Positions 9,114 through 51,155 are shown, numbered from the stretch's first letter. The stretch: 51,155 bases of DNA from Bigelowiella natans CCMP2755 (GCA_000320545.1 ADNK01001801.1:1-51155); one strand, 5' to 3'. A program made the numbers and translations. Notes: generated by a model not told the origin, from the letters alone.

Positions 9114-9923
9114 ACTCTTTCTCATCCATTATTTCCAACTACTCCGTTCCGTGACATGCATCCTCCTCAAACCGAACTTATACGATAGGTGAAGCTAATG
9201 GCCGCGGCGCCGTTCATATTTTTGCTAATAATGTGGATGTTGCTTTATCTACTTCTCCGCTGGTAATTTGATAAGGATAATAGCTCTTCCAAAGAAAAGA
9301 AAATGTAGCCTTGATAATTTATGATGGGACAATGTATTTATGATCGCAAGCGAAGCGAACGAAGCAAATGTTACCTACTATATCTCGTAGATTCGTGATA
9401 CCACGTAACGTATTGTAGAGCGTATCTTTAATGCTACATATCTAGATGTGCGGTACTTTCTCCAGATGTCCAATTTATCATGCACTAAGTATTTAGAGTT
9501 TATATCAGACTAGCAAGGGAGCGTGATGATGTCCATCATAAGACATAGCGCAAACGCATACAAATAATCATATATCATACTTGCAATAGTGCAACCTATT
9601 TTTGGAAGATTCCATGTGACCAAATGATGGCGACAAAATGCTTACTCTGTCTAGTCTATGTCGTCAGATGCCTTTCGTGGACGTATACGACGCAAATCTC
9701 ATAAAAAATATGCGTGCGCAACGCCTGAACATAGCATGGAATGCAGCCTGCACACATGCCGTGATGCTTAGTAATTGCGAACTGGACGCACGTTCTTCAC
9801 CTTTTCTCAATCTCCTTTAGGCATAAAATGGCTTTAGTTTCATCCCCACGTAGCATGGTGACTAATTATTTGACATTGCTGAGCAAGCTCTTATTCAGAA
9901 TAACTTGATCCTAACAGCAAAAA

Positions 9924-10249
9924 TGTAGCGCGTACCACTACGCGGGCACAAGTCACGTGCGACAACAAAGGGGTTGTCGCGGATATAGAATATAGATAAC
10001 GTAGATATTAATACAGCATAGGCACGTGGGTTCCGGCGGGACTCATGGCAGCACACCGGAAGTGTGCTGCCCCACGTGCGGCGGCATTCGCGAAAGCTTC
10101 GCGAATGATTACGCAGTGCACGATTTAATAAAAATATAATCTTTAATAAAAATAAACACAACTCTTCAAAAGGAAGCAAACGTGCCTTTCCCCCCCCCTG
10201 CCTACTTGTGCACGTAGCGCCTCGGCCTGTGAACACCTTACGCGCAACA
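9924..10249 (+). repeat. 5' LTR of copy A
   Basis: TGTAGCG...GCAACA; same sequence at 15314-15639 and 28366-28691, inverted at 33511-33835. AT-rich TATA/polyA-like block at ~10124-10156. Confidence 0.97.
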
Positions 10250-10254
10250 ACCTT

Positions 10255-10272
10255 TGGCTTCCACACACGGGA
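10255..10272 (+). promoter_or_regulatory. Primer-binding-site-like sequence TGGCTTCCACACACGGGA
   Basis: Starts with TGG 5 nt downstream of the LTR, the usual PBS position. Cognate tRNA not identified. Confidence 0.55.
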
Positions 10273-10288
10273 AACGATTTGACTAACA

Positions 10289-13200
10289 ATGTCACAGCAG
10301 CTAGAAGAACAGCAGGACTTTGGCTCGCAGGCCGTGCAAGGGCACGAGCAGAAACAGGAAAGGAAGGGCGATACGGACGCTAAGGAAGGAGGAGGAACAC
10401 CTCCACAGGCACCGCCGGGACCAGCACCCGGGATTAAGAAAGCAGATGCAGCAGCAGAGGCACTGGAGAACTTCTACGAGGCGGACGACGAGGACGTGGC
10501 CGCCGAAAGCAAGAAGGTCGTAATGGCATTACGAGCCTTGCGACCCAGGGCGAGCAACTACGCCAAACTGAAAGTATCGATAGAATACAAGTATCAGACA
10601 CATGATGTTTGGGCAGCTATCATGCAGGACATCATGGATTACGAAGCAGACTTACCTCCAGAGTGGGCAGCTTTGTTTAGGAACGACGGGGGTCTGGGCG
10701 CCTCGCGGGGGACGACCCAGAGCACCGTCAAGCAGCAGCAGCCGGTACAGCGGAACACCCAGTTCATGTCTGTTAAAACAGCACCGGTTATGATAACGAA
10801 ATACAACGGGAAAAGAGGTGAGGCAAGGAGGTGGTGGAAGAACGCTAGGAGTATACTCTGCGACTTTACCCCTAACCCCACCGAAAACGACAAGCTCAAA
10901 TGGCTAGCTATAATAAAGCAAGCCATGGACCTTTACGAGACAGGCAGGACCCGGATCAGGCAGCTAGAGAAAATACACACTACAGTTAGTGGGCTACGAG
11001 ACGTTGAGGCGATAATGAAGGCTTTTGTAAATGAACAGGATGCTAACTCCCTACCCCAGGCTATTAGAAAATACAGAGCAATGATGCAGCATGAGAGAGA
11101 ACCTGTTAGAGACTTTGCCACGCGCTTCCAGGATATGATCGACGAACTACATGATTTTAATTACAACACAGGTGATGATCAGGCAAGGTTTGAAGAGTTC
11201 AAGTTAAAGATAAAGGAATCCACTTACGTTACGGAGAAAGGCTACACCACGATGGAGGCAGCAGTGCAGGCTATATCCCTACGCGAGCAGGAGCAGGACC
11301 GCAAGTTTACCAGCCCTAAGGTACCTGGCATAGGAAACATTAACGCTATTAAGCCGCAGCGAGACTGGTACAAGGACAGGGAAGGTAACCGACGTTGCGG
11401 ATACTGCTCACGTAAAGGGAAACACACCGCTAAAGACTGCAGAGACAGGAAAGAAGGACGACCCAGGATGACGATCAGGCAGCTCAACGAACACTACGAG
11501 AAGTTAAAGAGAAAGAAAGGCAGAGGACAAGGATATAACAACAGCAAATGGCAAGGCAGCAACAACGGGAAGAACAATAAATATAAGAACAAAAAGCAGA
11601 ACAGTATCAATGCTATACAGCAGCAGATAAACGGAATATTAGATCACCTTAAGCAGGCGCCGACGAAGACAGCAGTACCAGCAACGCAGGACCAAGACAA
11701 GCCCATGACCCTAGACGACATAAAGAACTTAGGAGTATGCAACATTAATGACGAAGACGCTAACAGGACTATCAAAGTTGCTATGACCAAGGTTAAAGTT
11801 AAAGACAGCTACGGAGACTACAAGAAACTACCTGCCCTTTGGGATAGTGGCAGCATGCCGAAGTCCTTCATAAGCCTAAGCACAGTAAGAAGGTTAGGAC
11901 TATTGGATCAAGTGACTAAGAAAGAACGTAAATATGCTCAAGCAGACGGAAGCTCTTCCATGAAGACCGTCGGTGAGCTAATGCTAAAGCTACAGATACC
12001 TGGCAGCGACGCGGAGACCCAAATCAAGACCCGAGTAGCCATGACTTTATCCATGGAACTACTCCTCGGACAGGATGCCCTAGAAAAATTAGGGGGGATC
12101 ATATCATTCTACAATCACAAGATATACTTTGCTAAGTTGCCAAAGAAGTCAGGCAGGACCATCAGCCAGAACATGATACGGCTTGACGAGTGGACCTCTG
12201 AGTCAAGCGTTAATGCGTTAGAGTTTATGGACCTAGCGGACAACAAGCTACCTACACCTACCGAGCTACGGAAGAAGAACCCCGGCAAGACCATCCGACA
12301 GATAACGGAGCTACTGGACAAGACCCCCCCAGCTGATGATTGGGATATCGACAAAGGCAAAAAGTACATTAATAAAATATTAAACGAGAAGTACTCTGAC
12401 ATCACCAAGCCGACGACGAAGCCCTCCAGCAAGCTTACCCCAGTAAAGATCGAGCTAAAGAAGGGATACGAAGAGTGCATCATCAATGACCCAGAACATA
12501 GGCGACCGGAAGCGGACTGGGAAAAGATAGAGTGGCAGATCAATGAATGGGCAAAGGAAGGGAAGATAGAGCCAAGCAACTCACCATGGAACGTGAGACA
12601 TGTGCTAGCTAAGAAACCTACTTACCCTTTCTTCCGCCTGGCGCACAACTTCATCCGCCACAACCGAGTAATAAAGAGGATCCAGACACCTACACCAAGG
12701 ATAGATGACGTTATTGAACACGTCATAGGATACAAATACTACTCTTCCCTAGATAAAAATGAATCATACATGCAGACACCCATCCACAAAACCTCCCGCC
12801 CCATTACCGCGTTCTCCAGCAGGCACAGGAAGTGGCACTTCGTCGTATTCCCTTACGGCCTAAGCATATCAGGGGATGCGTTCAGTAGTCAGAACTACAG
12901 GGCATACACACATGATGGGATGGCGTCTGTGTTGTGGGTGTTTGTGTTTGTGTATGTGGATGATGACATAATATGTACCAACACAGTCGTCGCTCAGATC
13001 TTCCTCCTGGAAAATATATTTATTAGGTTTGCACACTTCGGTTTTACTATTAGACTGCAGAAGTGTACATTCCTAGCTACAAGAATCAAGTGGTGTGGAT
13101 ATTACCTGGAGCAAGGCCGCATCACCCCAAACCCCGAGAAAGTAGCAGCACTACAGCAAGCCCCTAAACCTAAGAATGCAAAGGAGTTAAAGTCATTCTT

Positions 13201-15262
13201 GCAGACTGCAGCTTGGATACTACGTAGGTTCTCCCCTACCTACGCTAGGACTGCAGCTGCTTTTACTACTGCTTACCGGAAGGAGAACTCTGTAGGCCTC
13301 AGCTTCGCTAAGGTGTGGGCCAAGGCTGGCCTTGATGCCCACTTCGATAACCTAATAAAGTTATGCAGCAACACCCTATTGAATGCTAAGCTAGACACTA
13401 CTAGACCAGCTACCCTATGGACAGACTGGTCTAAGCTAGGTATGGCTGCTGTACTTACCCAAGACCAGCAGATCATACGGGTGTGGGGCAGGGCCTGCAC
13501 AGCAGCTGAGGCCAAGTACAGCCCTACAAAAGGAGAGTATAAAGCCATGACTGAGGCGCAGAGGAAACTAAGATACTACCTGCTGTCGGTGCCCAGCTTC
13601 ACCTTAATGACTGACCACAAGCCCCTCCTAGGCATCGACCGCAAGCTCGAAGCGCCTAACGATGAGTATGCAGCTATGAGGGCGGACACGGAAGAGTTTA
13701 GGGACAAGAGGACAGTGGTCTACGCACCAGGAGACAAGCAGCTTGCTGACTATTTCAGCAGGCTGTTCGAAAAGAAAGTCCCTACCCAGGTCACCCCTAT
13801 GGTTAACGCGATTACCTTCGAGGACGGCGACTTCCTGCCTGAGCCAGAGGAGCTCCAGCACCTTCAAGAACACCTGGATAAATACAAACACAAGCATGAG
13901 GTACTTAGTGATAGGATATATGTATACACTAATAATGTTAGGCGTACCTACGTGCCACGGCGGACCAGGGGAGCCCTTCTCTTTACCGCCCATGGACCTG
14001 CACACGTAGGAGAAAACCATATCACTGCTCTACTCTACCATTACTACTGGCCCTACAAGCTAAAAGAGATAAGGACATACCTGCGTGGCTGCAGGTGCTC
14101 CAGCTTGAAGGCGGCAGGCGTCGCCACCAAGGAGTCCAGCAAGAGCCGTGCATCTAAGAAAATCAAAGCAAGGAACTTCTTAGATATCGTGCAAATTGAT
14201 GTTTATAAGTACGATGGCTATCACTACCTTACCTTCGTTGATGTGGCCACTGGAAAGTGCTGGGTTAAAAAGATTATCAAGGTCAACGTTGCTAAGAAGA
14301 ACAAAGGCTTATATAAGCAGAGGCTTACTAACTGCTACCGTACCTGGGAGTCTGAGCTCCAGGCTATCCCTGATGAAGTTAGCATAAACAAGATACCAAA
14401 GAAGTTACATGTGGATAATGAGACCTCTCTTCTACAGCTACCACACCCTAATATTGATGCCTCACCTGTATACTATGCCCAGTCCAACTCCAAGGTAGAG
14501 CGACTCCACCGCACCTTGGCCAACCTAAGCAGGATAAATAGCACCACACCAGACAAGATACAAGGGTTAGTAAACGACACCTTCACGTCTGGGGGAGGTA
14601 TCAAGGATAAGGAGAGGGAAGAAGGCGACGACAACGACGACGATACCGAGAGCGAAGACGAGAAGGTCCCGTACGATGGCCGAGTTCTAAAGGAAGGACA
14701 GTATGTTAGGGCCAAGGTAAATCTGAGATCGAGAAATAAACAAGACCCCTTCTGGGGTGGCGTTGCAAAGGTTACCGAGAGGAAGGGGAGGAAGCAGTAC
14801 TACATCTATGATGGGAACAGGGTCACCTTGCGCCACATCAGTCACCTAAAGAATTATGATATCGGTGAGAAGCTCCTAGAGGATGTTAAAGTAAACCCTA
14901 CTGTGTGGGAGCGAGCAATGCCTTGTTTAGGACCCCGACCTAAGTTCGATGTGGAATATGGAAACAATAAGGTCAGGGTGAACGACGATTGGCGCATGAA
15001 GATTGTCTATCTAGGCTACCCTGGATTACGAAATATGGAGAGGGTAGCTATGAAAATAAAGGACGGAAAATATCAGCTACTCTACCTAGCTGTTCCCGAC
15101 TTACCCTTTGAGCACTGGTATAAGGTCCTGGGGGACCTTGATGCAGAGGGCTGGTATGGACACGAACCTAAGGACGAAGGTGAGTTCTGGGTAAGCGACA
15201 AAGGAGATAAGGTTAGAGAGGAATCTATTACCTGGTGGTTGGTGAAGTTCCGAAAGCGATGA
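10289..15262 (+). CDS. Gag-Pol polyprotein, 1657 aa (Gag, Zn knuckle, aspartic protease, RT, RNase H, integrase, C-terminal extra domain)
   Basis: CGYCSRKGKHTAKDC knuckle; LWDSGS protease; SPWN...LD...PYGL...YVDD RT; TDWS...E...TDHKPL...ADYFSR RNase H; H-x3-H...CxC, QIDV...HVDN...SNSKVERLHRTL integrase DDE core. Confidence 0.97.
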   Translation: MSQQLEEQQDFGSQAVQGHEQKQERKGDTDAKEGGGTPPQAPPGPAPGIKKADAAAEALENFYEADDEDVAAESKKVVMALRALRPRASNYAKLKVSIEYKYQTHDVWAAIMQDIMDYEADLPPEWAALFRNDGGLGASRGTTQSTVKQQQPVQRNTQFMSVKTAPVMITKYNGKRGEARRWWKNARSILCDFTPNPTENDKLKWLAIIKQAMDLYETGRTRIRQLEKIHTTVSGLRDVEAIMKAFVNEQDANSLPQAIRKYRAMMQHEREPVRDFATRFQDMIDELHDFNYNTGDDQARFEEFKLKIKESTYVTEKGYTTMEAAVQAISLREQEQDRKFTSPKVPGIGNINAIKPQRDWYKDREGNRRCGYCSRKGKHTAKDCRDRKEGRPRMTIRQLNEHYEKLKRKKGRGQGYNNSKWQGSNNGKNNKYKNKKQNSINAIQQQINGILDHLKQAPTKTAVPATQDQDKPMTLDDIKNLGVCNINDEDANRTIKVAMTKVKVKDSYGDYKKLPALWDSGSMPKSFISLSTVRRLGLLDQVTKKERKYAQADGSSSMKTVGELMLKLQIPGSDAETQIKTRVAMTLSMELLLGQDALEKLGGIISFYNHKIYFAKLPKKSGRTISQNMIRLDEWTSESSVNALEFMDLADNKLPTPTELRKKNPGKTIRQITELLDKTPPADDWDIDKGKKYINKILNEKYSDITKPTTKPSSKLTPVKIELKKGYEECIINDPEHRRPEADWEKIEWQINEWAKEGKIEPSNSPWNVRHVLAKKPTYPFFRLAHNFIRHNRVIKRIQTPTPRIDDVIEHVIGYKYYSSLDKNESYMQTPIHKTSRPITAFSSRHRKWHFVVFPYGLSISGDAFSSQNYRAYTHDGMASVLWVFVFVYVDDDIICTNTVVAQIFLLENIFIRFAHFGFTIRLQKCTFLATRIKWCGYYLEQGRITPNPEKVAALQQAPKPKNAKELKSFLQTAAWILRRFSPTYARTAAAFTTAYRKENSVGLSFAKVWAKAGLDAHFDNLIKLCSNTLLNAKLDTTRPATLWTDWSKLGMAAVLTQDQQIIRVWGRACTAAEAKYSPTKGEYKAMTEAQRKLRYYLLSVPSFTLMTDHKPLLGIDRKLEAPNDEYAAMRADTEEFRDKRTVVYAPGDKQLADYFSRLFEKKVPTQVTPMVNAITFEDGDFLPEPEELQHLQEHLDKYKHKHEVLSDRIYVYTNNVRRTYVPRRTRGALLFTAHGPAHVGENHITALLYHYYWPYKLKEIRTYLRGCRCSSLKAAGVATKESSKSRASKKIKARNFLDIVQIDVYKYDGYHYLTFVDVATGKCWVKKIIKVNVAKKNKGLYKQRLTNCYRTWESELQAIPDEVSINKIPKKLHVDNETSLLQLPHPNIDASPVYYAQSNSKVERLHRTLANLSRINSTTPDKIQGLVNDTFTSGGGIKDKEREEGDDNDDDTESEDEKVPYDGRVLKEGQYVRAKVNLRSRNKQDPFWGGVAKVTERKGRKQYYIYDGNRVTLRHISHLKNYDIGEKLLEDVKVNPTVWERAMPCLGPRPKFDVEYGNNKVRVNDDWRMKIVYLGYPGLRNMERVAMKIKDGKYQLLYLAVPDLPFEHWYKVLGDLDAEGWYGHEPKDEGEFWVSDKGDKVREESITWWLVKFRKR

Positions 15263-15268
15263 AGGTCT

Positions 15269-15313
15269 AAGGGAATAAGGAAGGAAGGAAGGAGCAACGT
15301 GACTTGGGGGAGG
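15269..15313 (+). promoter_or_regulatory. Polypurine tract region
   Basis: GGGGGAGG immediately abuts the 3' LTR (15306-15313), preceded by purine-rich AAGGGAATAAGGAAGGAAGGAAGGAG. Confidence 0.8.
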
Positions 15314-15639
15314 TGTAGCGCGTACCACTACGCGGGCACAAGTCACGTGCGACAACAAAGGGGTTGTCGCGGATATAGAATATAGATAACGTAGATATTA
15401 ATACAGCATAGGCACGTGGGTTCCGGCGGGACTCATGGCAGCACACCGGAAGTGTGCTGCCCCACGTGCGGCGGCATTCGCGAAAGCTTCGCGAATGATT
15501 ACGCAGTGCACGATTTAATAAAAATATAATCTTTAATAAAAATAAACACAACTCTTCAAAAGGAAGCAAACGTGCCTTTCCCCCCCCCTGCCTACTTGTG
15601 CACGTAGCGCCTCGGCCTGTGAACACCTTACGCGCAACA
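15314..15639 (+). repeat. 3' LTR of copy A
   Basis: Matches 9924-10249 base for base by eye, including the C9 run. Confidence 0.97.
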
Positions 15640-16556
15640 AAAAGTACTGAGATTGGACACACAGAGAAGGTTCATAACAAAGGGAAATCATGGAACTGGA
15701 TCGGAAGACCACGGACGTTTCCAAACTTATCCACTGGGATGATGTAATGGACTCTCGTTGTCCAGGCCACATAGAAAGGGTGCAGCGTGTTTTACGTTCC
15801 GTGGTTCGTCCTCGAGCGATGATGGGTTGGCATTGGTCCGAATCGTGTCGTCCTTCCTTGCCTGTTATGCAGTAATATTGATCATTTCGATTGCGTATGT
15901 CTCAACGATGATGATTTTGACGATGATGAGCATGATGTAACGTGCTGACCCATCCGCAGATCCTGTCAAACGAAGATCTCTTCGAGAGCAGCAGGCAGGC
16001 AGGGTGTGTTCCCTTCTGAGCGAAGAGATACTGATCATATTGAATGCCGTCCATTTTCGACAATTTCCTTCAACTTTCTTAGGTCGCAGGATCGAAAAGC
16101 CATTCTCTCTGAATTCACCTGAAACGGCCCTGTCGCAGGTGCTCATCGCCTTGCAAACGGATCAAAGTTCTTCTCAACCCGAGCATTGAGCCGAAAAGCC
16201 AATTCGAAACGGCCTATAAAAGTAGTCTGAGACATAGAAATATTACGGAAACGAAAATCGCATGTTTAGGGAACCGAGGCCAGACTGTCACAGAATAGTT
16301 TGGCAGAATCAGACCACGTACTCGCCCCCACTCGAGCAAATTCCCCTCATAAGGAGGAGAAGATAAGCATACGGGTACAGCTTAGGAAGGATGCAAATCG
16401 CATGAAGGCTCGTAGCTATCGTGTGTGGGGATATGTATGTAGCGTTGCAACGGCGTCGGCATTTACCCCACACAGAAATATATTGCTTCCAGGTGTGATA
16501 CGGCGGGGGGTTGCACTACACTCAATTGGGAAACAACGTCATCGTATCGTTCGAAC

Positions 16557-19670: not shown

Positions 19671-21125
19671 TTATTTGTCGCAAGAGAGAACGAAGTACCC
19701 ATCTTTGGTATGGCCCGTCGCGAGCGAGAATAAGTCATCATTCTTCTCCAAACGCCATGTTGTGGGCCCGCAAGGGCTGCTCCTGAGCTTCGGGTCATCA
19801 GTTCGCAGTTTATTCTCTTCACAAACGGCTCCGTTTGTGTTAGGGCCAGATTTGTAAAACATATTACCCTGCTGGCCTGCCTGAGTGAGTCCACTAATCA
19901 CGCTATCACTTCCGTCATTATCATCCATATCAATAGCAATGTTTAGTGTCGGAGCATAATGGGTGCTGGCAGGATGCCAGCTTGTGCGTGTAGGGATTAC
20001 TTCCAGGGCTAGTGCATTCTTGCCGTTGAAGCGGGGGCAGGAACAAGAAACTTCGTGATTGTGCTTCCCTGGGCTAGTACATGCATCTCCAAAGTCGCCT
20101 GTATCACCAAGAAAATGGCTGCTACTTGCATCGAGATAGTAAACGTTGAAAGATTTCACGGTTTCGTTTACGCGCCAATTGTCCATTGTCTCGTGAGATA
20201 GATGGGCGATCATCACAGTGCTACCGCACTTGAACCCAACAGCACGGGTGTAGTGATGTCCATTGACGCTGTTATAGAAGCATGACTGAATGCTTTGTTC
20301 GCCCTTCCCCAATCCGACGTTGAGGTAGGCTCCTGGAGAGGACACAAAATAGGTGTTTCCTGAAAAATCCGTTATCATGGGGTCACCCTTCTGTTCGGAG
20401 TGCTTCTTCTTCCTCTTGCCGTGATACTTTTCGATCTTCCAAATCTTTTTCTTGATGCCTTCTTTAATCTTCTTTGCGATCTTCTTGAGCTTCTCCTTTC
20501 CGGATTTCTTGACCTTGTCCTCCTCTCGGTGTCTTTTCTTCTTGCTCCAATACTTCCATTTCCATGTGAATTTCTTCCTTGGAAACGTTGTCATGAGCAT
20601 CTCAGAATCATCATCCTCTTCTTGCCCCTCTTCCTCTACGACAACTGCCTCTGTTGCTACATTCTCACCACTGTCGCAGCTCACACTGCTCTCTCCACCC
20701 CTCTTCAAAGTCCATATTATGGAGGATCCAGAGGGATGGGAAATGCGAAGATCTGCTGCGCTGGCTGGTGTAATAACAAGACCCCCGTCCTCTTCTTGGA
20801 AGCATGATGTAGTATCCGTACCGCATGACCATTCAAATTTTGCGCCAGAAGACTTGGACAAGGTGACAGGACCTTGCTGGAAGTTGCATGTGAAGGCGAA
20901 GTCGTTAACGGCGCGGAATGCCTCATTATTCACACCATCGTTGACAGTAATGTTGCCTCTGAGATAAGAGGCACCAAAGAGGAGTTTGAGCGAATACACA
21001 GATTCGGTTTGTGGCTGGCGATCCAAGATGGCAATGGATGACACTTGATGATGGGACCTCCACAAAGCAGTAACAGATTGGTGGGAGGAGAGAGCAAAGA
21101 CGAGCGACGAGAGCAACATACTCAT
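19671..21125 (-). CDS. Intronless 484-aa predicted secreted protein with acidic/Lys-rich linker and VWD-like C-terminal domain
   Basis: Uninterrupted ORF; N-terminal hydrophobic signal (MLLSSLVFALSS). GDPMITDFSGNTYF resembles the GDPHxxTFDGxxYxF opening of von Willebrand factor type D domains and is followed by a Cys-containing domain. Confidence 0.75.
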   Translation of the reverse strand: MSMLLSSLVFALSSHQSVTALWRSHHQVSSIAILDRQPQTESVYSLKLLFGASYLRGNITVNDGVNNEAFRAVNDFAFTCNFQQGPVTLSKSSGAKFEWSCGTDTTSCFQEEDGGLVITPASAADLRISHPSGSSIIWTLKRGGESSVSCDSGENVATEAVVVEEEGQEEDDDSEMLMTTFPRKKFTWKWKYWSKKKRHREEDKVKKSGKEKLKKIAKKIKEGIKKKIWKIEKYHGKRKKKHSEQKGDPMITDFSGNTYFVSSPGAYLNVGLGKGEQSIQSCFYNSVNGHHYTRAVGFKCGSTVMIAHLSHETMDNWRVNETVKSFNVYYLDASSSHFLGDTGDFGDACTSPGKHNHEVSCSCPRFNGKNALALEVIPTRTSWHPASTHYAPTLNIAIDMDDNDGSDSVISGLTQAGQQGNMFYKSGPNTNGAVCEENKLRTDDPKLRSSPCGPTTWRLEKNDDLFSLATGHTKDGYFVLSCDK

Positions 21126-22269
21126 GATAGAGGCGCAGGGAGGCTTTTGCTGAGATTTGAGATTTGGATCAGACTCCCTAATTCGGATTTGGTAGCGAGA
21201 TGGCAGGGCAAAGTGAGATGTGATGGACTCATTTCTTCCTGGTTGAGCACACGGTAGGCCATTTTGCGGATTCTTTTGAGAGGAGAGCGAACAACTGGAG
21301 TTTTCTCCTAGAACCTTTTTCCACCATAGTGCTGCAAGAGGTCATCGATCCATGCTGCGCAAAATCGTCACATTCCTTGATCTGTGCAAGGCAATACCAA
21401 CGAAACTGATATATCTTGGTGCTGCATAATGAACACTGGAACCAGACGACAACAAAAGTGTGCGTTGCAGCGATCCATCATCTCCTGCCGGCAGTGCCGA
21501 AAATCTTCGTAATCCCCGGTGTTATTGTCGCGAAAATCGGCAGGATCATCGGCAGGCCGATGGCGTTCATGCTTGTGCACACCCCTTCGTCCATTGTCCT
21601 CTTTCCAGCAGTTCCCAGTCACAACTTCGAGGTTGAAGCTTTTGCTCTAGCACTCCCGAACACGTGCTCACAATGCCACGTGGTCACATTGCTACAGTTG
21701 GTCCGCCTAACAAGCGAATCCAACTGGCCAAACTTTCGGCGTGTGTGCCTTTGCCTTGTTCGTCACATTCTCAATGTCATGATCGTGCATCCATGCACAT
21801 GCAGATTGTTCATTCACACCTGCTAGCCTGCATGACGCATCGCATTTTGCTCGTTTGCATGCTGAGAACACGATTGTTTGCTAGTTTGGTTCTGGAGTTG
21901 TGCAGTTGGGTCCAGCTAGCCAGGGGTCCAGTCTGGCAGTGCTGGAGTGGGTGCTATGCGACAGCTGGACAGGTCCAGAGGTGGTCAATTTGCGTCGCCA
22001 ACTTGATCGATTGGGCACCAATCTCGAGAAATGCTAGCTTTTTGCACACAGCCATGATCTTTGACGAAGCATGCATCATCATCATGATCTGTCTTCCGAA
22101 TGAGATGGTTTCATGGAGAGTCTTTTGGTGTTTGACGCGTCAGCAGCAGCTGAGTAGCAATGCACATGAGCAATGAGCAACGCTTCGAAACACCAGATGA
22201 TTGACTACACATTTAGAATGGTCCAAATCTGTGTCATTTTCACGCTGAATATGGTGATGTGGGTCTTTG

Positions 22270-26738: not shown

Positions 26739-27031
26739 TTTAAAATCAGTAGTACCAACGTGTGCATGAATGTATGCATTGTAATATCTGTAAATGATGA
26801 CACCAGCAGCGATCTAAAGTCATCTGCATTCGATATAAACTCTTCACATAAAGTTGCTGATTTATTTGAACTGTCGAATTCCTTGCTGGACCACATCAAG
26901 GAAGACACATATGTGATGTGTAAGTAATGACAATGACAACCATCATGACCGCCAATGGTGGTGTGGTGTGCAAACATACCCTCGCAAAGCAATGCTGCTG
27001 CATCACACCAGTGCATTGTGCTACTCTAGTA

Positions 27032-28365
27032 CTGCATCATTGCATCTTTCACATCATGTTGTGCACACTCAAAATGCAAGCCCAGGGTGATTCCACACTA
27101 GCACACTCTGTCAACAAAAAAGGCCAGAAGGGAACTGGTGAAGTTTTGACATGCATCCCTTGAGAAGGTCCCTTTCGTGATGCAGCTGCCGTGGAAGGCA
27201 TGTGCATCATGACACATCCAACACCAGAGCTAGCAGAGTGTTCCAGTGTTGGACACCAGCTGCCGTGCTGGTGTGGAAGGCAGCACAGTGCTAGAGTGTG
27301 TTGTGATGCATCCAACACGATGGTGTTGGATGCACGTTGCTGCCGTGCTGACGCAGGCAAGGTGTGATCATGGATCCAACACCGTTGTGTTGGTGAATGC
27401 CACACGTGCAACAGCCCTCTCAGTGCACGCCGAAGGCATCCATTGGGGGGGAGTCCAAGAGTCACACCGGCAAAAGGAGTCACGCTGCAATGTGGAACAA
27501 GCTCAAAAAGAACCAGAGAAGCTCAAGATGGCCATCAAACAGTGAGTGCACAACACGAACGTGTTCGGTTCAGGGGGAGCGTGAGAACGTGAACGCACAC
27601 GTCACGCATCGTTGGAAACTGCAATTCTCCGACACGCACTTCAGGCCGTGGGCAATCAGTCCAAGCAGTCGTGACTTTGGACGTGCGATGACGTCCTGTG
27701 AATTGGTTGCAACAGAATTGGAGGGGGTTTCCCCAATTCACTGTGTTTTTTTTTACTAGGCCATGTGATCCAGCGATCTGTGGGTCACGTGGACCCTTCC
27801 CCCACGCTGACGTGGAGGAACCTGCGTGCAAAGCGTGCAAGAATCAACTGGTGCAGTCACTGAACATGATTTCAGATGCACCACGTTGAGTTGTTGCGTG
27901 ACGCTGCAAATCTGTCATGCAGTGCACGTGAACAACAAGCTGCGCAACGCCGAAAGTTCACGTTGCGACGGTGCAGAAGTGAACTGTGCCAAAGTGTCAC
28001 GTGCGCATTGCTGAATTGTGCGCATTGTGTCACTGTGTCTGACAAACATCACGTTGGACAACGTGTGATGTCACAATGTCACGCACGTGTCGTGCACATT
28101 GAGCATTGAACAATGATGAAAAACTGCACTTCCAAAGAGTGACAAGACACTTGCAATGTGTGAAGTGCAGTGCCTCGAACTGCTAGACTGGCTTCAGTGA
28201 GGACTGACTAGCAAACCAGCGGGATTCATGCAAGTTGGCACGAACTGAACATTGAATGCATCACAACTAGCAGCCAAGTGACGACGACGCAAAGCACCCA
28301 TCCTGAGCAGGAACTTCCTGACAGTCACGTCCACACGGACACGGAGAACAGATCAACGTCAGGGA
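27032..28365. other. TpA-free compositional island
   Basis: Manual count: 8 TpA in ~1330 bp, 7 of them in CTAG. Confidence 0.92.
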
Positions 28366-28691
28366 TGTAGCGCGTACCACTACGCGGGCACAAGTCACGT
28401 GCGACAACAAAGGGGTTGTCGCGGATATAGAATATAGATAACGTAGATATTAATACAGCATAGGCACGTGGGTTCCGGCGGGACTCATGGCAGCACACCG
28501 GAAGTGTGCTGCCCCACGTGCGGCGGCATTCGCGAAAGCTTCGCGAATGATTACGCAGTGCACGATTTAATAAAAATATAATCTTTAATAAAAATAAACA
28601 CAACTCTTCAAAAGGAAGCAAACGTGCCTTTCCCCCCCCCTGCCTACTTGTGCACGTAGCGCCTCGGCCTGTGAACACCTTACGCGCAACA
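28366..28691 (+). repeat. LTR, + orientation, followed by PBS-like leader
   Basis: 326 bp; no differences seen versus the copy A LTRs. Confidence 0.95.
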
Positions 28692-28774
28692 ACCTTTGGC
28701 TTCCATCTGCTTGGGAAACGATTTGACTAACAATGTCACAGCAGCTAGAAGAACAGCAGGACTTTGGCTCGCAA

Positions 28775-31700
28775 GTCGTTCACCCTGACCTTATTATTTC
28801 CATATTCCACATCGAACTTAGGTCGGGGTCCTAAACAAGGCATGGCTCGCTCCCACACAGTAGGGTTTACTTTAACATCCTCTAGGAGCTTCTCACCGAT
28901 ATCATAATTCTTTAGGTGACTGATGTGGCGCAAGGTGACCCTGTTCCCATCATAGATGTAGTACTGCTTCCTCCCCTTCCTCTCGGTAACCTTTGCAACG
29001 CCACCCCAGAAGGGGTCTTGTTTATTTCTCGATCTCAGATTTACCTTGGCCCTAACATACTGTCCTTCCTTTAGAACTCGGCCATCGTACGGGACCTTCT
29101 CGTCTTCGCTCTCGGTATCGTCGTCGTTGTCGTCGCCTTCTTCCCTCTCCTTATCCTTGATACCTCCCCCAGACGTGAAGGTGTCGTTTACTAACCCTTG
29201 TATCTTGTCTGGTGTGGTGCTATTTATCCTGCTTAGGTTGGCCAAGGTGCGGTGGAGTCGCTCTACCTTGGAGTTGGACTGGGCATAGTATACAGGTGAG
29301 GCATCAATATTAGGGTGTGGTAGCTGTAGAAGAGAGGTCTCATTATCCACATGTAATTTCTTTGGTATCTTGTTTATGCTAACTTCATCAGGGATAGCCT
29401 GGAGCTCAGACTCCCAGGTACGGTAGCAGTTAGTAAGCCTCTGCTTATATAAGCCTTTGTTCTTCTTAGCAACGTTGACCTTGATAATCTTTTTAACCCA
29501 GCACTTTCCAGTGGCCACATCAACGAAGGTAAGGTAGTGATAGCCATCGTACTTATAAACATCAATTTGCACGATATCTAAGAAGTTCCTTGCTTTGATT
29601 TTCTTAGATGCACGGCTCTTGCTGGACTCCTTGGTGGCGACACCTGCCGCCTTCAAGCTGGAGCACCTGCAGCCACGCAGGTATGTCCTTATCTCTTTTA
29701 GCTTGTAGGGCCAGTAGTAATGGTAGAGTAGAGCAGTGATATGGTTTTCTCCTACGTGTGCAGGTCCATGGGCGGTAAAGAGAAGGGCTCCCCTGGTCCG
29801 CCGTGGCACGTAGGTACGCCTAACATTATTAGTGTATACATATATCCTATCACTAAGTACCTCATGCTTGTGTTTGTATTTATCCAGGTGTTCTTGAAGG
29901 TGCTGGAGCTCCTCTGGCTCAGGCAGGAAGTCGCCGTCCTCGAAGGTAATCGCGTTAACCATAGGGGTGACCTGGGTAGGGACTTTCTTTTCGAACAGCC
30001 TGCTGAAATAGTCAGCAAGCTGCTTGTCTCCTGGTGCGTAGACCACTGTCCTCTTGTCCCTAAACTCTTCCGTGTCCGCCCTCATAGCTGCATACTCATC
30101 GTTAGGCGCTTCGAGCTTGCGGTCGATGCCTAGGAGGGGCTTGTGGTCAGTCATTAAGGTGAAGCTGGGCACCGACAGCAGGTAGTATCTTAGTTTCCTC
30201 TGCGCCTCAGTCATGGCTTTATACTCTCCTTTTGTAGGGCTGTACTTGGCCTCAGCTGCTGTGCAGGCCCTGCCCCACACCCGTATGATCTGCTGGTCTT
30301 GGGTAAGTACAGCAGCCATACCTAGCTTAGACCAGTCTGTCCATAGGGTAGCTGGTCTAGTAGTGTCTAGCTTAGCATTCAATAGGGTGTTGCTGCATAA
30401 CTTTATTAGGTTATCGAAGTGGGCATCAAGGCCAGCCTTGGCCCACACCTTAGCGAAGCTGAGGCCTACAGAGTTCTCCTTCCGGTAAGCAGTAGTAAAA
30501 GCAGCTGCAGTCCTAGCGTAGGTAGGGGAGAACCTACGTAGTATCCAAGCTGCAGTCTGCAAGAATGACTTTAACTCCTTTGCATTCTTAGGTTTAGGGG
30601 CTTGCTGTAGTGCTGCTACTTTCTCGGGGTTTGGGGTGATGCGGCCTTGCTCCAGGTAATATCCACACCACTTGATTCTTGTAGCTAGGAATGTACACTT
30701 CTGCAGTCTAATAGTAAAACCGAAGTGTGCAAACCTAATAAATATATTTTCCAGGAGGAAGATCTGAGCGACGACTGTGTTGGTACATATTATGTCATCA
30801 TCCACATACACAAACACAAACACCCACAACACAGACGCCATCCCATCATGTGTGTATGCCCTGTAGTTCTGACTACTGAACGCATCCCCTGATATGCTTA
30901 GGCCGTAAGGGAATACGACGAAGTGCCACTTCCTGTGCCTGCTGGAGAACGCGGTAATGGGGCGGGAGGTTTTGTGGATGGGTGTCTGCATGTATGATTC
31001 ATTTTTATCTAGGGAAGAGTAGTATTTGTATCCTATGACGTGTTCAATAACGTCATCTATCCTTGGTGTAGGTGTCTGGATCCTCTTTATTACTCGGTTG
31101 TGGCGGATGAAGTTGTGCGCCAGGCGGAAGAAAGGGTAAGTAGGTTTCTTAGCTAGCACATGTCTCACGTTCCATGGTGAGTTGCTTGGCTCTATCTTCC
31201 CTTCCTTTGCCCATTCATTGATCTGCCACTCTATCTTTTCCCAGTCCGCTTCCGGTCGCCTATGTTCTGGGTCATTGATGATGCACTCTTCGTATCCCTT
31301 CTTTAGCTCGATCTTTACTGGGGTAAGCTTGCTGGAGGGCTTCGTCGTCGGCTTGGTAATGTCAGAGTACTTCTCGTTTAATATTTTATTAATGTACTTT
31401 TTGCCTTTGTCGATATCCCAATCATCAGCTGGGGGGGTCTTGTCCAGTAGCTCCGTTATCTGTCGGATGGTCTTGCCGGGGTTCTTCTTCCGTAGCTCGG
31501 TAGGTGTAGGTAGCTTGTTGTCCGCTAGGTCCATAAACTCTAACGCATTAACGCTTGACTCAGAGGTCCACTCGTCAAGCCGTATCATGTTCTGGCTGAT
31601 GGTCCTGCCTGACTTCTTTGGCAACTTAGCAAAGTATATCTTGTGATTGTAGAATGATATGATCCCCCCTAATTTTTCTAGGGCATCCTGTCCGAGGAGT

Positions 31701-33471
31701 AGTTCCATGGATAAAGTCATGGCTACTCGGGTCTTGATTTGGGTCTCCGCGTCGCTGCCAGGTATCTGTAGCTTTAGCATTAGCTCACCGACGGTCTTCA
31801 TAGAAGAGCTTCCGTCTGCTTGAGCATATTTACGTTCTTTCTTAGTCACTTGATCCAATAGTCCTAACCTTCTTACTGTGCTTAGGCTTATGAAGGACTT
31901 CGGCATGCTGCCACTATCCCAAAGGGCAGGTAGTTTCTTGTAGTCTCCGTAGCTGTCTTTAACTTTAACCTTGGTCATAGCAACTTTGATAGTCCTGTTA
32001 GCGTCTTCGTCATTAATGTTGCATACTCCTAAGTTCTTTATGTCGTCTAGGGTCATGGGCTTGTCTTGGTCCTGCGTTGCTGGTACTGCTGTCTTCGTCG
32101 GCGCCTGCTTAAGGTGATCTAATATTCCGTTTATCTGCTGCTGTATAGCATTGATACTGTTCTGCTTTTTGTTCTTATATTTATTGTTCTTCCCGTTGTT
32201 GCTGCCTTGCCATTTGCTGTTGTTATATCCTTGTCCTCTGCCTTTCTTTCTCTTTAACTTCTCGTAGTGTTCGTTGAGCTGCCTGATCGTCATCCTGGGT
32301 CGTCCTTCTTTCCTGTCTCTGCAGTCTTTAGCGGTGTGTTTCCCTTTACGTGAGCAGTATCCGCAACGTCGGTTACCTTCCCTGTCCTTGTACCAGTCTC
32401 GCTGCGGCTTAATAGCGTTAATGTTTCCTATGCCAGGTACCTTAGGGCTGGTAAACTTGCGGTCCTGCTCCTGCTCGCGTAGGGATATAGCCTCATTTAC
32501 AAAAGCCTTCATTATCGCCTCAACGTCTCGTAGCCCACTAACTGTAGTGTGTATTTTCTCTAGCTGCCTGATCCGGCCTGATCATCACCTGTGTTGTAAT
32601 TAAAATCATGTAGTTCGTCGATCATATCCTGGAAGCGCGTGGCAAAGTCTCTAACAGGTTCTCTCTCATGCTGCATCATTGCTCTGTATTTTCTAATAGC
32701 CTGGGGTAGGGAGTTAGCATCCTGTTCATTTACAAAAGCCTTCATTATCGCCTCAACGTCTCGTAGCCCACTAACTGTAGTGTGTATTTTCTCCAGCTGC
32801 CTGATCCGGGTCCTGCCTGTCTCGTAAAGGTCCATGGCTTGCTTTATTATAGCTAGCCATTTGAGCTTGTCGTTTTCGGTGGGGTTAGGGGTAAAGTCGC
32901 AGAGTATACTCCTAGCGTTCTTCCACCACCTCCTTGCCTCACCTCTTTTCCCGTTGTATTTCGTTATCATAACCGGTGCTGTTTTAACAGACATGAACTG
33001 GGTGTTCCGCTGTACCGGCTGCTGCTGCTTGACGGTGCTCTGGGTCGTCCCCCGCGAGGCGCCCAGACCCCCGTCGTTCCTAAACAAAGCTGCCCACTCT
33101 GGAGGTAAGTCTGCTTCGTAATCCATGATGTCCTGCATGATAGCTGCCCAAACATCATGTGTCTGATACTTGTATTCTATCGATACTTTCAGTTTGGCGT
33201 AGTTGCTCGCCCTGGGTCGCAAGGCTCGTAATGCCATTACGACCTTCTTGCTTTCGGCGGCCACGTCCTCGTCGTCCGCCTCGTAGAAGTTCTCCAGTGC
33301 CTCTGCTGCTGCATCTGCTTTCTTAATCCCGGGTGCTGGTCCCGGCGGTGCCTGTGGAGGTGTTCCTCCTCCTTCCTTAGCGTCCGTATCGCCCTTCCTT
33401 TCCTGTTTCTGCTCGTGCCCTTGCACGGCCTGCGAGCCAAAGTCCTGCTGTTCTTCTAGCTGCTGTGACAT
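28775..33471 (-). pseudogene. Disrupted gag-pol of copy B
   Basis: Gag frame stops at 32560 after an internal duplication/deletion. The remainder (32512-28775) is identical in protein to copy A but lacks the last ~90 aa. Confidence 0.92.
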
Positions 33472-33510
33472 TGTTAGTCAAATCGTTTCCCGTGTGTGGA
33501 AGCCAAAGGT

Positions 33511-33835
33511 TGTTGCGCGTAAGGTGTTCACAGGCCGAGGCGCTACGTGCACAAGTAGGCAGGGGGGGGGAAGGCACGTTTGCTTCCTTTTGAAGAGTTT
33601 TGTTTATTTTTATTAAAGATTATATTTTTGTTAAATCGTGCACTGCGTAATCATTCGCGAAGCTTTCGCGAATGCCGCCGCACGTGGGGCAGCACACTTC
33701 CGGTGTGCTGCCATGAGTCCCGCCGGAACCCACGTGCCTATACTGTATTAATATCTACGTTATCTATATTCTATATCCGCGACAACCCCTTTGTTGTCGC
33801 ACGTGACTTGTGCTCGCGTAGTAGTACGCACTACA
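33511..33835 (-). repeat. 5' LTR of the minus-strand copy (diverged variant)
   Basis: 325 bp; 6 substitutions and a 1-bp deletion versus the other three LTRs (manual comparison). Confidence 0.93.
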
Positions 33836-48277: not shown

Positions 48278-48511
48278 GCCTCTTGGGTCCAACTACATTA
48301 ACGAAACAGTAAGAACATAGGTGAATTTTAAGGAAAACTTGGTGACGTCGTCCATCATTACGCGCCACGCTGTGCAAAGAGCCAGCAATTTGCATTCCGC
48401 AATTTTAGCAGAATATTGAGCAATGTACAATCTTTCAATTTTGCATTCTGTGTGCAATTGGAAACCTTGCCTTCAGGCTCCACAAGAATTCGCAAGGGTA
48501 CGACGTGATTA

Positions 48512-51042
48512 ATTTGCGATTGGAATTTCTCTCTTCGCGTGTTTGAGTCAGCACCATCTCCGCAAATCTCCATGTTGTCTCCGAAAGCCTCCAAGAGTTT
48601 CCCGAAAGCGCTGGCCAGGTTCGTTCAGCGTCTTGTTTGATCCTTGTCGCAGATGAGGTGATGCCCACACAAAATTCGCGGAAATTTCCTCGTCCCCGTC
48701 CTCATTGGTCAGGCCGAGGCAACACATTGCATGCGACAATTTTAATGTGAAGTTTTCATGGTGGAATTCTCCTTTGCGGTCTAGGGATTCGGTCCCACAT
48801 TGTTTCGAAAAGGATCGATGAAACTAGAGCAGGGTGCAACTCGAGATGATCACTGGAGTTTCCTTCAACTCCCAAAGTGAGGCAGGTCACTGAATTTTCG
48901 ACATCGTGCCAGAGTCACAAGGATGCTGCCATTGTGACACCAATTCATTGGTGCAATCCACAACTTTCACTTCTGGATCAGAGTGAGCGCAAACCAGCAG
49001 TTGACAGTGGCGAGGCCCATCACTGTGGTCTGAGCCAGAGAGGTCTGGGGATGTGCATGAACAATGACGGTGCGCGGCATGTGTGCATCACGACACTTCG
49101 CACTGCACGTCGCCTCCAACCAGCTGGATCTTGCCGTTCGTGACAAGCGCATGCGTGCTGGCATGGCTGGTCCAGCGGTCCAGTGACCTCCAGTTCCAGT
49201 GATGTGGACACTGCGGTCACAGCAACAATCCCACAATGCACTTGCTTTCTGTTGCTAGCTGGCCAGTGCAGCAGCAGCTGCCACGTGCTGCCATGCACGT
49301 GACACGTGAGTGTGGAGACGCACGTGAACTTGGAAGTGAGATCGAAACATCCGCTGTGCGTGCGCTGCACTTGTTCAGGCACTGTTCATCTGTCCATGCC
49401 AGCATGCGTTGAGCGTGCACATCATCAGAGCGCATGAGCGGAAAGACAAACTTGAATGACCACAACGTTTTGCAAGCCATGCAGCAAGCGTGATGATCAC
49501 AAAGTGCCGTCAGGTGTGCCGTGTCGATGTCCACATCGCATGCATGCATGTCGTTTGTGGTGTGCATGCTGGCATGCTGGCGCATGCTGACCAGTGCTGC
49601 CATGGCTTGCATGATTGTTGGGTTTTGTTTCACACGTGCAACACCGTGTGTGCTGTGTGCTTGACACGAAGCTGGTTCGTGCTGCACTGACAAATTGATG
49701 CACGACGCACAGCGATGGATCGTTGTGTGTGTGCACCGTGCTGGCGTGTGTCACAGATTTGAGATGCGCATTGCTGTGTCCATCATTGTGACGCAATCGC
49801 AGCGACAAACTTTGCACGTTGGAATCACTGCATGCTGAAGCTCAGCCATGCCCATTTTTTCCACTTTCAAACTGCAACAACTTGAACTTCTCGCTCAACG
49901 TGACACGCGTGTGAGTGGATTCGTTCAAAGTGAAGTGACAGGTGCATCAGCGACGTTGGGCAAGCTTCTCAGCTTCTGTGAAGAAAGCACTCACCTGAGA
50001 CGTTGGTGAAGCAATGTGCAAAGTTGTTGTCTTGCATCATCCTGCTCCTTGTTCCATCCACATCCCAGCACCAGGAAGGACATCATCACCGATCACGTGC
50101 AAAGTTTTCTTCTCACCAGCTTTTTTTTGACACGACGTTCACCTTGTTTCGTTTCTGCACGCTGTGCGTGAGTTCAGGAGAAGTGTGGTTGGTGTGCTTC
50201 GTCTCAGTTCGTTCCACCCAGCGATCAACCTGTCGAAGTGTCAGCAGCACCTCGCTGAGTTCCAATTTTGAAACGTTGAAATCCTTTGTCAATTTTGGAG
50301 AAAAAGGAAGAAATCAAGCTTCTTTCTGGCATCATTGCTTCAATCATGGGCGGGCCTGGTCCCAAATTCTTGACATCTTCCAACCTTCTTTTCAAGTCCT
50401 GGTGAGCTTTGTCGGCAGCTGTGGCTTCTCTGAAGGCATTCTTCTGTCCGCAATGTGCAGCAGCAAAGGATGGCGAAAATCGCATGGGATCCACTGAGCC
50501 ACTGCTAGACTGGCGGATGAGGAGGACAATGACGATGGTGATTCTCCAACTTGCGGACCTGCTGCTGCTGCTGCTGCTGCTGAAGGTTGTGAAACACTGT
50601 GATTTTCAATGCCACTGTCATCGTGATTTGCATTGTGATCATCGTTGTGTCCAGGTGGCTTCCTTGAAGATTCTTCCTCTCGTTGTTTGCTGTTTCGTTC
50701 TCCTCTCAACTTGTTTTGTCGCGACGCAATCGAGGCGATTTCTCTCCCTTGTCCTGCTCCAATTCCTTTTTCGCCTTTTCCCTCTTCCTCCGCTGCCTTG
50801 TCATCCACGTGTTCTCTCCTGACCTCTTTGATGAGCGCTTTTGCCTCGAATCGTTGCACGTCCAATGCTCTCTGCTTCTCAAACTCGTGATGGGCAGACT
50901 GCACTCGTTTCGGTGTGAGCTTGCCAACTCTTTCTCTGTTGTCAGCGTCATCGTCTTTTTCAATGCCACTTTTCTGGTCCTCCTCCTCCTCCTGCTGCTG
51001 CTGCTGTGAGGCAGAGTCACATGAAGGATGATGTGAGTTGGG
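48512..51042. other. TpA-free compositional island (subtelomeric)
   Basis: Manual count: 5 TpA in ~2530 bp (TTAA at 48742; CTAG at 48781, 48824, 49255, 50505). Confidence 0.93.
49840..51005 (-). pseudogene. Subtelomeric gene relic (charged/coiled-coil-like protein), Tyr-free
   Basis: Coding-like frames QEEEEDQKSGIEKDDDADNRERVGKLTPKRVQSAHHEFEKQRALDVQRFEAKALIKEVRREHVDD... and DPMRFSPSFAAAHCGQKNAFREATAADKAHQDLKRRLEDVK, preceded by a pyrimidine-rich CAG acceptor. No upstream exon before the telomere. Confidence 0.5.
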
Positions 51043-51155
51043 TTAGGGTTAGGGTTAGGGTTAGGGTTAGGGTTAGGGTTAGGGTTAGGGTTGGGGTTAG
51101 GGTTAGGGTTAGGGTTAGGGTTGGGGTTAGGGTTGGGGTTAGGGTTAGGGTTCGG
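51038..51155 (+). repeat. Telomeric repeat (TTAGGG)n
   Basis: 18 hexamers at 51043-51150 (15 TTAGGG, 3 TTGGGG). G-rich strand runs toward the sequence end, as expected for a chromosome terminus. Confidence 0.97.

Follow-up and report, generated by a model that had tools for sequence, protein, structure and literature searches.

What does a Ty3/gypsy retrotransposon carry at the very end of its integrase, where a chromodomain would sit in some of its relatives? The question is raised by a stretch of 51,155 nucleotides from Bigelowiella natans CCMP2755 (GCA_000320545.1, ADNK01001801.1:1-51155; hereafter the window), which holds an intact element of this kind whose integrase had been described in a first-pass annotation, made from the sequence alone, as ending in a domain that resembles the Dam-like N6-adenine methyltransferases of DIRS elements. 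The analysis presented here indicates that this C-terminal domain very probably has the fold and the ancestry of a Dam-type N6-adenine methyltransferase, as judged from a predicted model and from profile comparisons, and that it is probably inactive as an enzyme. The open reading frame (ORF) runs for about 125 residues past the integrase core and an SH3-like segment, as had been stated, and contains the peptides quoted in that annotation; the start given for the stretch, 14888, lies one codon upstream of the first quoted residue, a valine at 14891. The stretch makes up the final 124 residues of the gag-pol ORF and follows the SH3 domain, with no linker between SH3 and Dam-like domains. The features on which the argument rests are:

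10289..15262, plus strand: single gag-pol ORF, 1657 residues
14672..14860, plus strand: integrase C-terminal SH3-like domain (presumably of the type labelled GPY/F), from its structural match to the foamy-virus (PFV) integrase C-terminal domain (CTD)
14864..15259, plus strand: Dam-like N6-adenine methyltransferase-fold domain, predicted inactive, from model, profile and structure comparisons
14948-14950, plus strand: motif-I aspartate of the Dam-like domain
15014-15025, plus strand: GYPG, at the NPPY position of the Dam-like domain
15095-15097 and 15116-15118, plus strand: invariant proline and invariant tryptophan of the Dam-like domain

Searched as a single sequence, the domain of the window finds no match in Pfam, PHROGs, NCBIfam, PDB sequences or Atlas, and its structure predicted from that one sequence reaches a predicted local distance difference test score (pLDDT) of 37. 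The AlphaFold model that the first-pass annotation had called for, built for the SH3 and C-terminal domains from 42 sequences, attains a pLDDT of 96.6 and a predicted template modelling score of 0.89, and presents a methyltransferase-like fold whose best structural matches are N6-adenine methyltransferases. Residues 1-63 of the model match the PFV integrase CTD (Z 8.2-9.2, root-mean-square deviation (rmsd) 1.7-1.9, 61 aligned). For the rest, Foldseek against BFVD yields five matches at E<=0.001, namely three DNA N-6-adenine-methyltransferases, one methyltransferase and one unnamed protein, and VIA against PDB finds CAPAM/PCIF1 as the only rows spanning the second domain (one and four of the 50 best rows in two runs), the best of them with a middling score (Z 8.0, rmsd 3.4, 119 aligned). 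In Atlas, 28 of the 30 matches of a relative, P0068, are to the Dam family PF05869, the best at 0.93 with 191 of 256 features.

Profile comparisons lead to the same proteins. The family profile comprises 37 members (42 rows minus five shorter than 90 residues), and was compared with a phage Dam profile of 70 distinct sequences, from 80 loci of which 77 are open, and with a DIRS profile of 22 domains, taken from 21 of 30 loci and from L089, and chosen on their DLFA, [FY]PP and P..W motifs. Against phage Dam the family scores 32.3 (E 8e-5), where the reversed profile gives 10.2 and the best of 39 column shuffles and of 99 block shuffles give 21.5 and 21.6, respectively; against DIRS it scores 28.5 (E 2.8e-4), with 12.9 for the reversed profile and 19.0 for the best of 99 shuffles. 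The proposed resemblance to Dam-like methyltransferases thus exceeds chance, both scores lying above every reversed or shuffled control, and DIRS and phage Dam score lower with each other (20.4) than the family does with either. The Pfam Dam model (PF05869) matches just one of the 37 relatives (E 0.032; 14.4 bits vs a curated cut-off of 28.1) and not the window's own domain, and a genuine DIRS domain likewise stays under the cut-off (E 0.02, 15 bits), which means that the family would escape Pfam screening at 1e-5. A register setting VNP against LDP, taken from a one-sequence comparison, was dropped, as both larger profiles give another one.

At E<=0.001, a search among 1.84 billion representatives recovered 46 proteins; of these, 37 are 28-42% identical to the domain. 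Relatives of sufficient length carry an integrase and an SH3 domain immediately upstream of the Dam-like domain, and in three of them, the complete gag-pol proteins P0057, P0064 and P0087, the same domain stands at the C-terminus, which confirms for them, too, the position, usually held by a chromodomain or by nothing, that had been proposed for the element of the window. The label of B. natans appears on four of the 30 relatives checked, the remainder coming from metagenome or transcriptome collections. A scan of metagenomes based on reverse transcriptase (RT) and RNase H (RH) gave ten loci, three with a whole or partial Dam-like domain, none with NPP, and five that belong to distant elements, 22-43% identical, in which the family profile has no match; no member of this gypsy family was found in IMG/VR. 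As side observations, the full-length P0087 has a CCCH zinc finger (residues 354-380) after its gag CCHC knuckle, and P0044, a member annotated in a bacterial (Nitrospirales) metagenome-assembled genome (MAG), is likely contamination.

Regarding the active site, in enzymes with the (N/D/S)PP(Y/F/W) motif the first and fourth residues position and stack the flipped target adenine. Phage Dams keep NPPY/F, following V-W-L, in 70 of 70 cases, whereas the first-pass annotation had already seen GYPG in this place, and the survey of relatives that it proposed finds [NDS]PP[YFW] in 0 of 37 aligned members. GYPG is the most frequent form (16 members), followed by GCPG, GFPG and SFPF (three each), AYPG, SFPL, GRPG and GHPG (two each), and four forms found once each; the SFPF/L subgroup looks intermediate in sequence. 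Both adenine-holding positions are therefore glycine in most members, which argues against catalysis and also against adenine reading in the old pocket, so that the suggestion of a modified-base reader loses ground. The shortening of the segment that binds S-adenosylmethionine (SAM), also anticipated, is borne out by gaps of 13 residues with respect to phage Dam and 18 with respect to DIRS between motifs I and IV, as judged from alignments, and the motif-I aspartate is retained in 27 of 35 members. With the motif lost throughout the family and a short SAM segment, the inactivity that had been raised as a possibility becomes the probable state of the domain. On the other hand, P78, W85, W97 and W124 are present in all 37 members, and P53 and W109 in 36, while the mean identity among five long members is 28% for the Dam-like domain (RT 49%, integrase core 45%, gag 26%). 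Such near-invariant prolines and tryptophans in spite of a 28% identity indicate that the domain is being maintained, and not decaying.

The donor of the domain can be narrowed down to a lesser extent. At E<0.001 the DIRS profile matches 14 of the 37 members, among them that of the window (2.6e-5), and the phage profile two, but the P..W segment was among the motifs by which the DIRS set was chosen, a choice that favours its profile. A 75-row quick tree groups the family with DIRS (SH-like approximate likelihood ratio support 88, with a long-branch warning), whereas a second tree of 44 rows, without three long ones, places them apart, though they are joined in 66% of its bootstrap trees (approximately unbiased test p = 0.50); all sequence sets were thinned for these trees. 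Of the label DIRS-type in the first-pass annotation, the Dam-like fold and ancestry hold, but the two trees disagree about a DIRS origin, which is plausible from the sequences and not established. Eukaryotic DIRS elements (L089-L120) were present in one IMG/VR record and in 21 of 30 contigs from bacterial genomes or MAGs, likely as contamination.

The element itself is an intact Ty3/gypsy long terminal repeat (LTR) retrotransposon, classed by its LTRs, primer-binding-site (PBS)-like stretch, polypurine tract, target-site duplication and order of protease (PR), RT, RH and integrase (IN). Pfam recognizes gag, protease, RT, RNase H and the integrase zinc finger in the Ty3/gypsy order, and together with motifs gives gag-CCHC, PR, RT, RH, IN, SH3 and extra domain along an ORF that is open for 1659 codons (10283-15262, plus strand; first methionine at 10289). 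The hallmarks of DIRS elements, a tyrosine recombinase and inverted or split repeats, are absent, a DDE integrase and direct LTRs being present instead, and Pfam detects no chromodomain after the integrase, where the C-terminal domain of the model matches methyltransferases. No tRNA gene was found within the window. The remaining features of the element, and a second copy, are:

9920-9923 and 15640-15643: target-site duplication AAAA, 4 bp, flanking both LTRs
9924..10249, plus strand: 5′ LTR, 326 bp, TG...CA ends, identical to the 3′ LTR
10255..10272, plus strand: PBS-like stretch, beginning with TGG 5 nt past the 5′ LTR
11396-11440, plus strand: gag CCHC knuckle, within the gag-pol ORF
11837-11854, plus strand: protease DSG motif, within the ORF
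12953-12967, plus strand: RT YVDD motif, within the ORF
from about 13340, plus strand: RNase H, within the ORF
13952..14570, plus strand: integrase zinc-binding (H2C2) domain and catalytic core (Pfam PF17921, E=0.002)
14189-14203, 14408-14422 and 14492-14506, plus strand: intact integrase motifs D, D and E, assigned as in retroviral-type integrases
15306..15313, plus strand: polypurine tract, from the sequence
15314..15639, plus strand: 3′ LTR, 326 bp
28366..33835, minus strand: second, rearranged copy, its minus-strand element (33835-28775) being fused to a plus-strand LTR/leader (28366-28782)

Among 108 candidate proteins, 21 bear the domain, all of them B. natans gene models and 20 of them at 99-100% identity, from which a recent expansion of the element family in this chlorarachniophyte alga is likely. 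The minus-strand part of the second copy ends inside the Dam-like domain and before GYPG, at the equivalent of 14986. In this copy an 84-bp internal segment is duplicated in place of another, and the PBS-like site is altered in the plus-strand leader, so that its rearrangement is either a genuine recombination or an assembly chimera. The window reaches a chromosome end, a TTAGGG telomeric array at 51040-51155, and also contains a 556-codon open frame (19671-21341, minus strand; TpA observed/expected ratio (o/e) 0.52), likely a portion of a host gene, whose sole Pfam match is a weak one to a CERLI1-like PH domain (E 0.47).

A further aspect is the dinucleotide TpA, which the host genome had been said to erase. 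The preprint of Mettrop et al. (bioRxiv 10.64898/2026.01.13.699255) reports hypermutation of TpA to TpG/CpA measured in viral inserts of B. natans, and an enrichment of reverse-transcriptase domains among TpA-poor genes. The window agrees with such erasure in two tracts, one at 48500-51040, adjoining the telomere repeat (6 TA vs 148 expected), and the other at 26900-28360 (15 vs 86). In these tracts CpA+TpG o/e reaches up to 2.0, four ORFs lack a Pfam match, and comparison with a set of gypsy and DIRS proteins gave none either. The element appears untouched, with 397 TA dinucleotides vs 351 expected and a TpA o/e of 1.06 vs 0.65-0.86 in its flanks, although calling such elements the only TA-rich repeats of the genome was an overstatement, as TA and TAG microsatellites are TA-rich too. 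A gene model that is a copy of the element (P0023) differs at 18 residues, TpA edits of the window DNA accounting for 16 of them, with seven of seven tyrosines lost, and P0031 and P0035, which represent B. natans families that are older and also bear the domain, have no tyrosine in 1243 and 670 residues. Among relatives without the Bigelowiella label, eight of 41 have zero or one tyrosine (four are short, and two come from one cluster), and TpA hypermutation likely acts in some hosts of these other relatives, to judge by their sequences. These tyrosine-free or -poor relatives are P0028, P0054, P0055, P0056, P0058, P0059, P0061 and P0085, and locus L149 has a TpA o/e of 0.38. The idea of counter-defence that the first-pass annotation put forward is weakened accordingly: as read from the copies, the domain confers no lasting protection from TpA editing, which it may merely delay, and the youth of the element explains its TA content.

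What the domain does may now be considered. The reading that we favour is that of a captured Dam-type domain, fused behind the integrase SH3, which lacks NPPY/F and part of the SAM-binding segment and is likely a pseudo-enzyme. Given the missing linker and the confident two-domain model, in which the domain is predicted to pack tightly on SH3, it would likely remain on the integrase, without proteolytic release. A binding role in this place has somewhat better than even chances by our reckoning, and hardly less can be said for its specific form, an inactive pseudo-methyltransferase by which the integration complex would be anchored on DNA or chromatin, much as by the chromodomain of chromoviruses. 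Several observations count against these proposals. The conserved tryptophans may serve merely to hold the fold, the domain has no basic character (its net charge has a median of -3.8 per 100 residues and is negative in 27 of 37 members; phage Dams are also slightly negative), and the single insertion site with both flanks seen is too few for a target preference. The retained motif-I aspartate leaves room for some cofactor binding. At the level of the fold, Foldseek against PDB gives no match at E<=0.001, its listing holding mostly SH3-like folds, structural Z scores of 7-8 fall in a range that the tool rates as common, and the profile match probabilities are just 61% (phage Dam) and 41% (DIRS). 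The same Z scores, the silence of the family libraries for the single sequence, the lone sub-cut-off Pfam match and a search of PDB sequences with domain and family profile, which returned chance-level collagenase and SEM1 rows and no methyltransferase, could be expected from a small alpha/beta domain converging on this shape without kinship to methyltransferases; however, the Foldseek matches among viral models, the VIA matches in PDB, the Atlas features and the two controlled profile comparisons all point to N6-adenine methyltransferases, and a genuine DIRS domain does no better in Pfam, which makes convergence highly improbable.

Three other roles deserve attention. An active methyltransferase with an unusual site could deposit N6-methyladenine (6mA) on the element's own cDNA or hybrid, favouring a permissive chromatin or blocking adenine deamination. 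The preserved fold, the motif-I aspartate, the motif-IV proline (36 of 37) and the SFPF/L subgroup (five of 37), with a hydroxyl residue at the first motif position and, in three of five, an aromatic one at the fourth, would suit this enzyme, as would the excess of 6mA that Fernandez-Moreno et al. (bioRxiv 10.64898/2026.05.21.726589) found over insertions of DAM-LTR elements in three species; but the residues that position and stack adenine are both glycine in most members, the SAM-binding side is 13-18 residues short, and even the NPP-intact domains of that preprint showed no activity and gave no 6mA in E. coli, so an enzyme of this kind is improbable. Slightly less so, though still unlikely, is that the inactive domain acts as a shield on TpA-containing element DNA, or as a decoy for a host adenine-editing enzyme, which would delay the mutation of TpA to TpG/CpA. 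The host is reported to mutate TpA in foreign DNA (bioRxiv 10.64898/2026.01.13.699255), the untouched element lies beside erased tracts, and the GCPG, GHPG and GRPG relatives are TpA-edited forms of GYPG, in a family that often lives where editing acts. Yet P0023 was erased, P0031 and P0035 have no tyrosine left, and identical LTRs together with 20 of 21 gene models at 99-100% identity indicate a recent burst that would alone explain the TA content. About as unlikely, and by a shade the least so, is an RNA- or protein-binding module working before integration, in packaging of the element RNA or in nuclear localisation through mimicry of PCIF1: among solved folds the nearest is that of CAPAM/PCIF1, which methylates RNA in a cap-specific manner, the domain is acidic and tryptophan-rich, and Iyer et al. 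(PMC4738411) suggest such a role for DIRS domains, but the domain is predicted to pack on the DNA-binding CTD of the integrase, away from gag or RT, and no WW domain is present.

A last observation concerns the opposite strand, where, in four of five metatranscriptome runs, contigs leave out short pieces of the element; no such gaps are among the rows listed for the three DNA runs compared with run X15. Runs X16-X20 contain only some 0.1 of the words, and no habitat or strain is read from them. The corresponding feature is:

10404..15300, minus strand: antisense transcript that spans the element and contains 27 distinct introns of 56-165 nt with GT/GC-AG ends

On the minus strand, each of the 22 short junctions listed has the GT/GC-AG ends of an intron, and a contig from a metagenome collection (L150) has 13 of 13 minus-strand introns, five of them new; 15 of the 27 were found in at least two sources, although the strand is not shown directly by contigs, several runs may stem from one campaign, and in a host so rich in introns U-rich transcripts of any kind may be spliced. 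Three introns lie in the Dam-like domain, an alternative joint skips 11874-15231, and TA dinucleotides amount to 9.3 per 100 nt in introns vs 3.9 in short exons. A protein-coding antisense gene was ruled out by stops in every frame of the spliced form (longest open stretch 113 residues, in L150), and literature searches, in which subscription papers were thinly covered, gave no report of antisense RNA over the element. It is possible, but doubtful as a whole, that a widespread and unrecognised Ty3/gypsy clade turned a captured adenine methyltransferase into a new kind of accessory domain of the integrase, a pseudo-enzyme that would recognise DNA containing adenine, would guide or shield integration and would have arisen against a TpA-hypermutating host defence, while the host marks the element through heavily spliced antisense RNA.

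In any case, the element extends DAM-carrying LTR retrotransposons to a Rhizarian host, and reveals a class of the domain invisible to Pfam-based screens. Since the domain is under selection after the loss of its catalytic motif, captured methyltransferases could have a useful function that is non-catalytic, the question left open by the negative activity test in E. coli of the DAM-LTR preprint. Moreover, the element is intact and multi-copy in a cultured alga with measured TpA hypermutation, and both pristine and erased copies are present in its genome, which makes targeting, 6mA marking and counter-defence directly testable.

Among known systems, chromoviruses are likewise Ty3/gypsy elements whose integrase ends in an accessory domain, but theirs is a chromodomain, absent from the B. 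natans element according to Pfam. CAPAM/PCIF1 offers the nearest solved fold (Z 7.0-8.0 over 109-119 residues, among the best 50 VIA rows) at 6-9% identity, and is an active RNA enzyme that carries extra domains. The phage and prophage Dams of PF05869 have in common the fold and a W-x2-3-VWL context ahead of motif IV, and differ in their NPPY/F (70 of 70), their full motif I and their location outside any retroelement polyprotein. With the methyltransferase domain of DIRS1-type elements there is a profile match over 95 columns, which includes a helix and the P-x6-W segment after motif IV, and a presumed inactivity, as Iyer et al. (PMC4738411) group DIRS domains with PCIF1 and argue that they are likely inactive binders; these domains, however, stand behind RNase H in tyrosine-recombinase elements, whereas that of B. 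natans follows a DDE integrase, and they keep DLFA and [FY]PP in the 22 used here, which were selected on these motifs. Literature searches turned up no account of a family with G-aromatic-P-G in a domain that ends its integrase, with the proviso that preprint supplements may list Bigelowiella sequences and that subscription papers were thinly covered; the main text of the DAM-LTR preprint has no mention of Bigelowiella, Rhizaria or Cercozoa, and a term search of the main text of PMC12695648 gives none of B. natans. The closest system is that of the DAM-LTR elements, in which Fernandez-Moreno et al. (bioRxiv 10.64898/2026.05.21.726589) distinguish five lineages with a conserved Asn-Pro-Pro (chlorophyte, chloro-ochrophyte, ichthyosporean, Pyropia and Euglena). 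Both have a Dam-like domain in a Ty3/gypsy pol ORF, and our model shows the topology that the preprint describes, a five-strand sheet preceded by one helix and followed by helices. By the preprint's description, theirs were found by Pfam at E 1e-5 and keep Asn-Pro-Pro, whereas the Bigelowiella family has G-aromatic-P-G, is 13-18 residues short and escapes Pfam. In its presumed working the domain would resemble the inactive DIRS domain, set where a chromodomain would be. By its architecture the element is a DAM-LTR that lacks the NPP of the described lineages, so that, the combination of an LTR element and a Dam domain being already described, the Bigelowiella family is a new variant of it.

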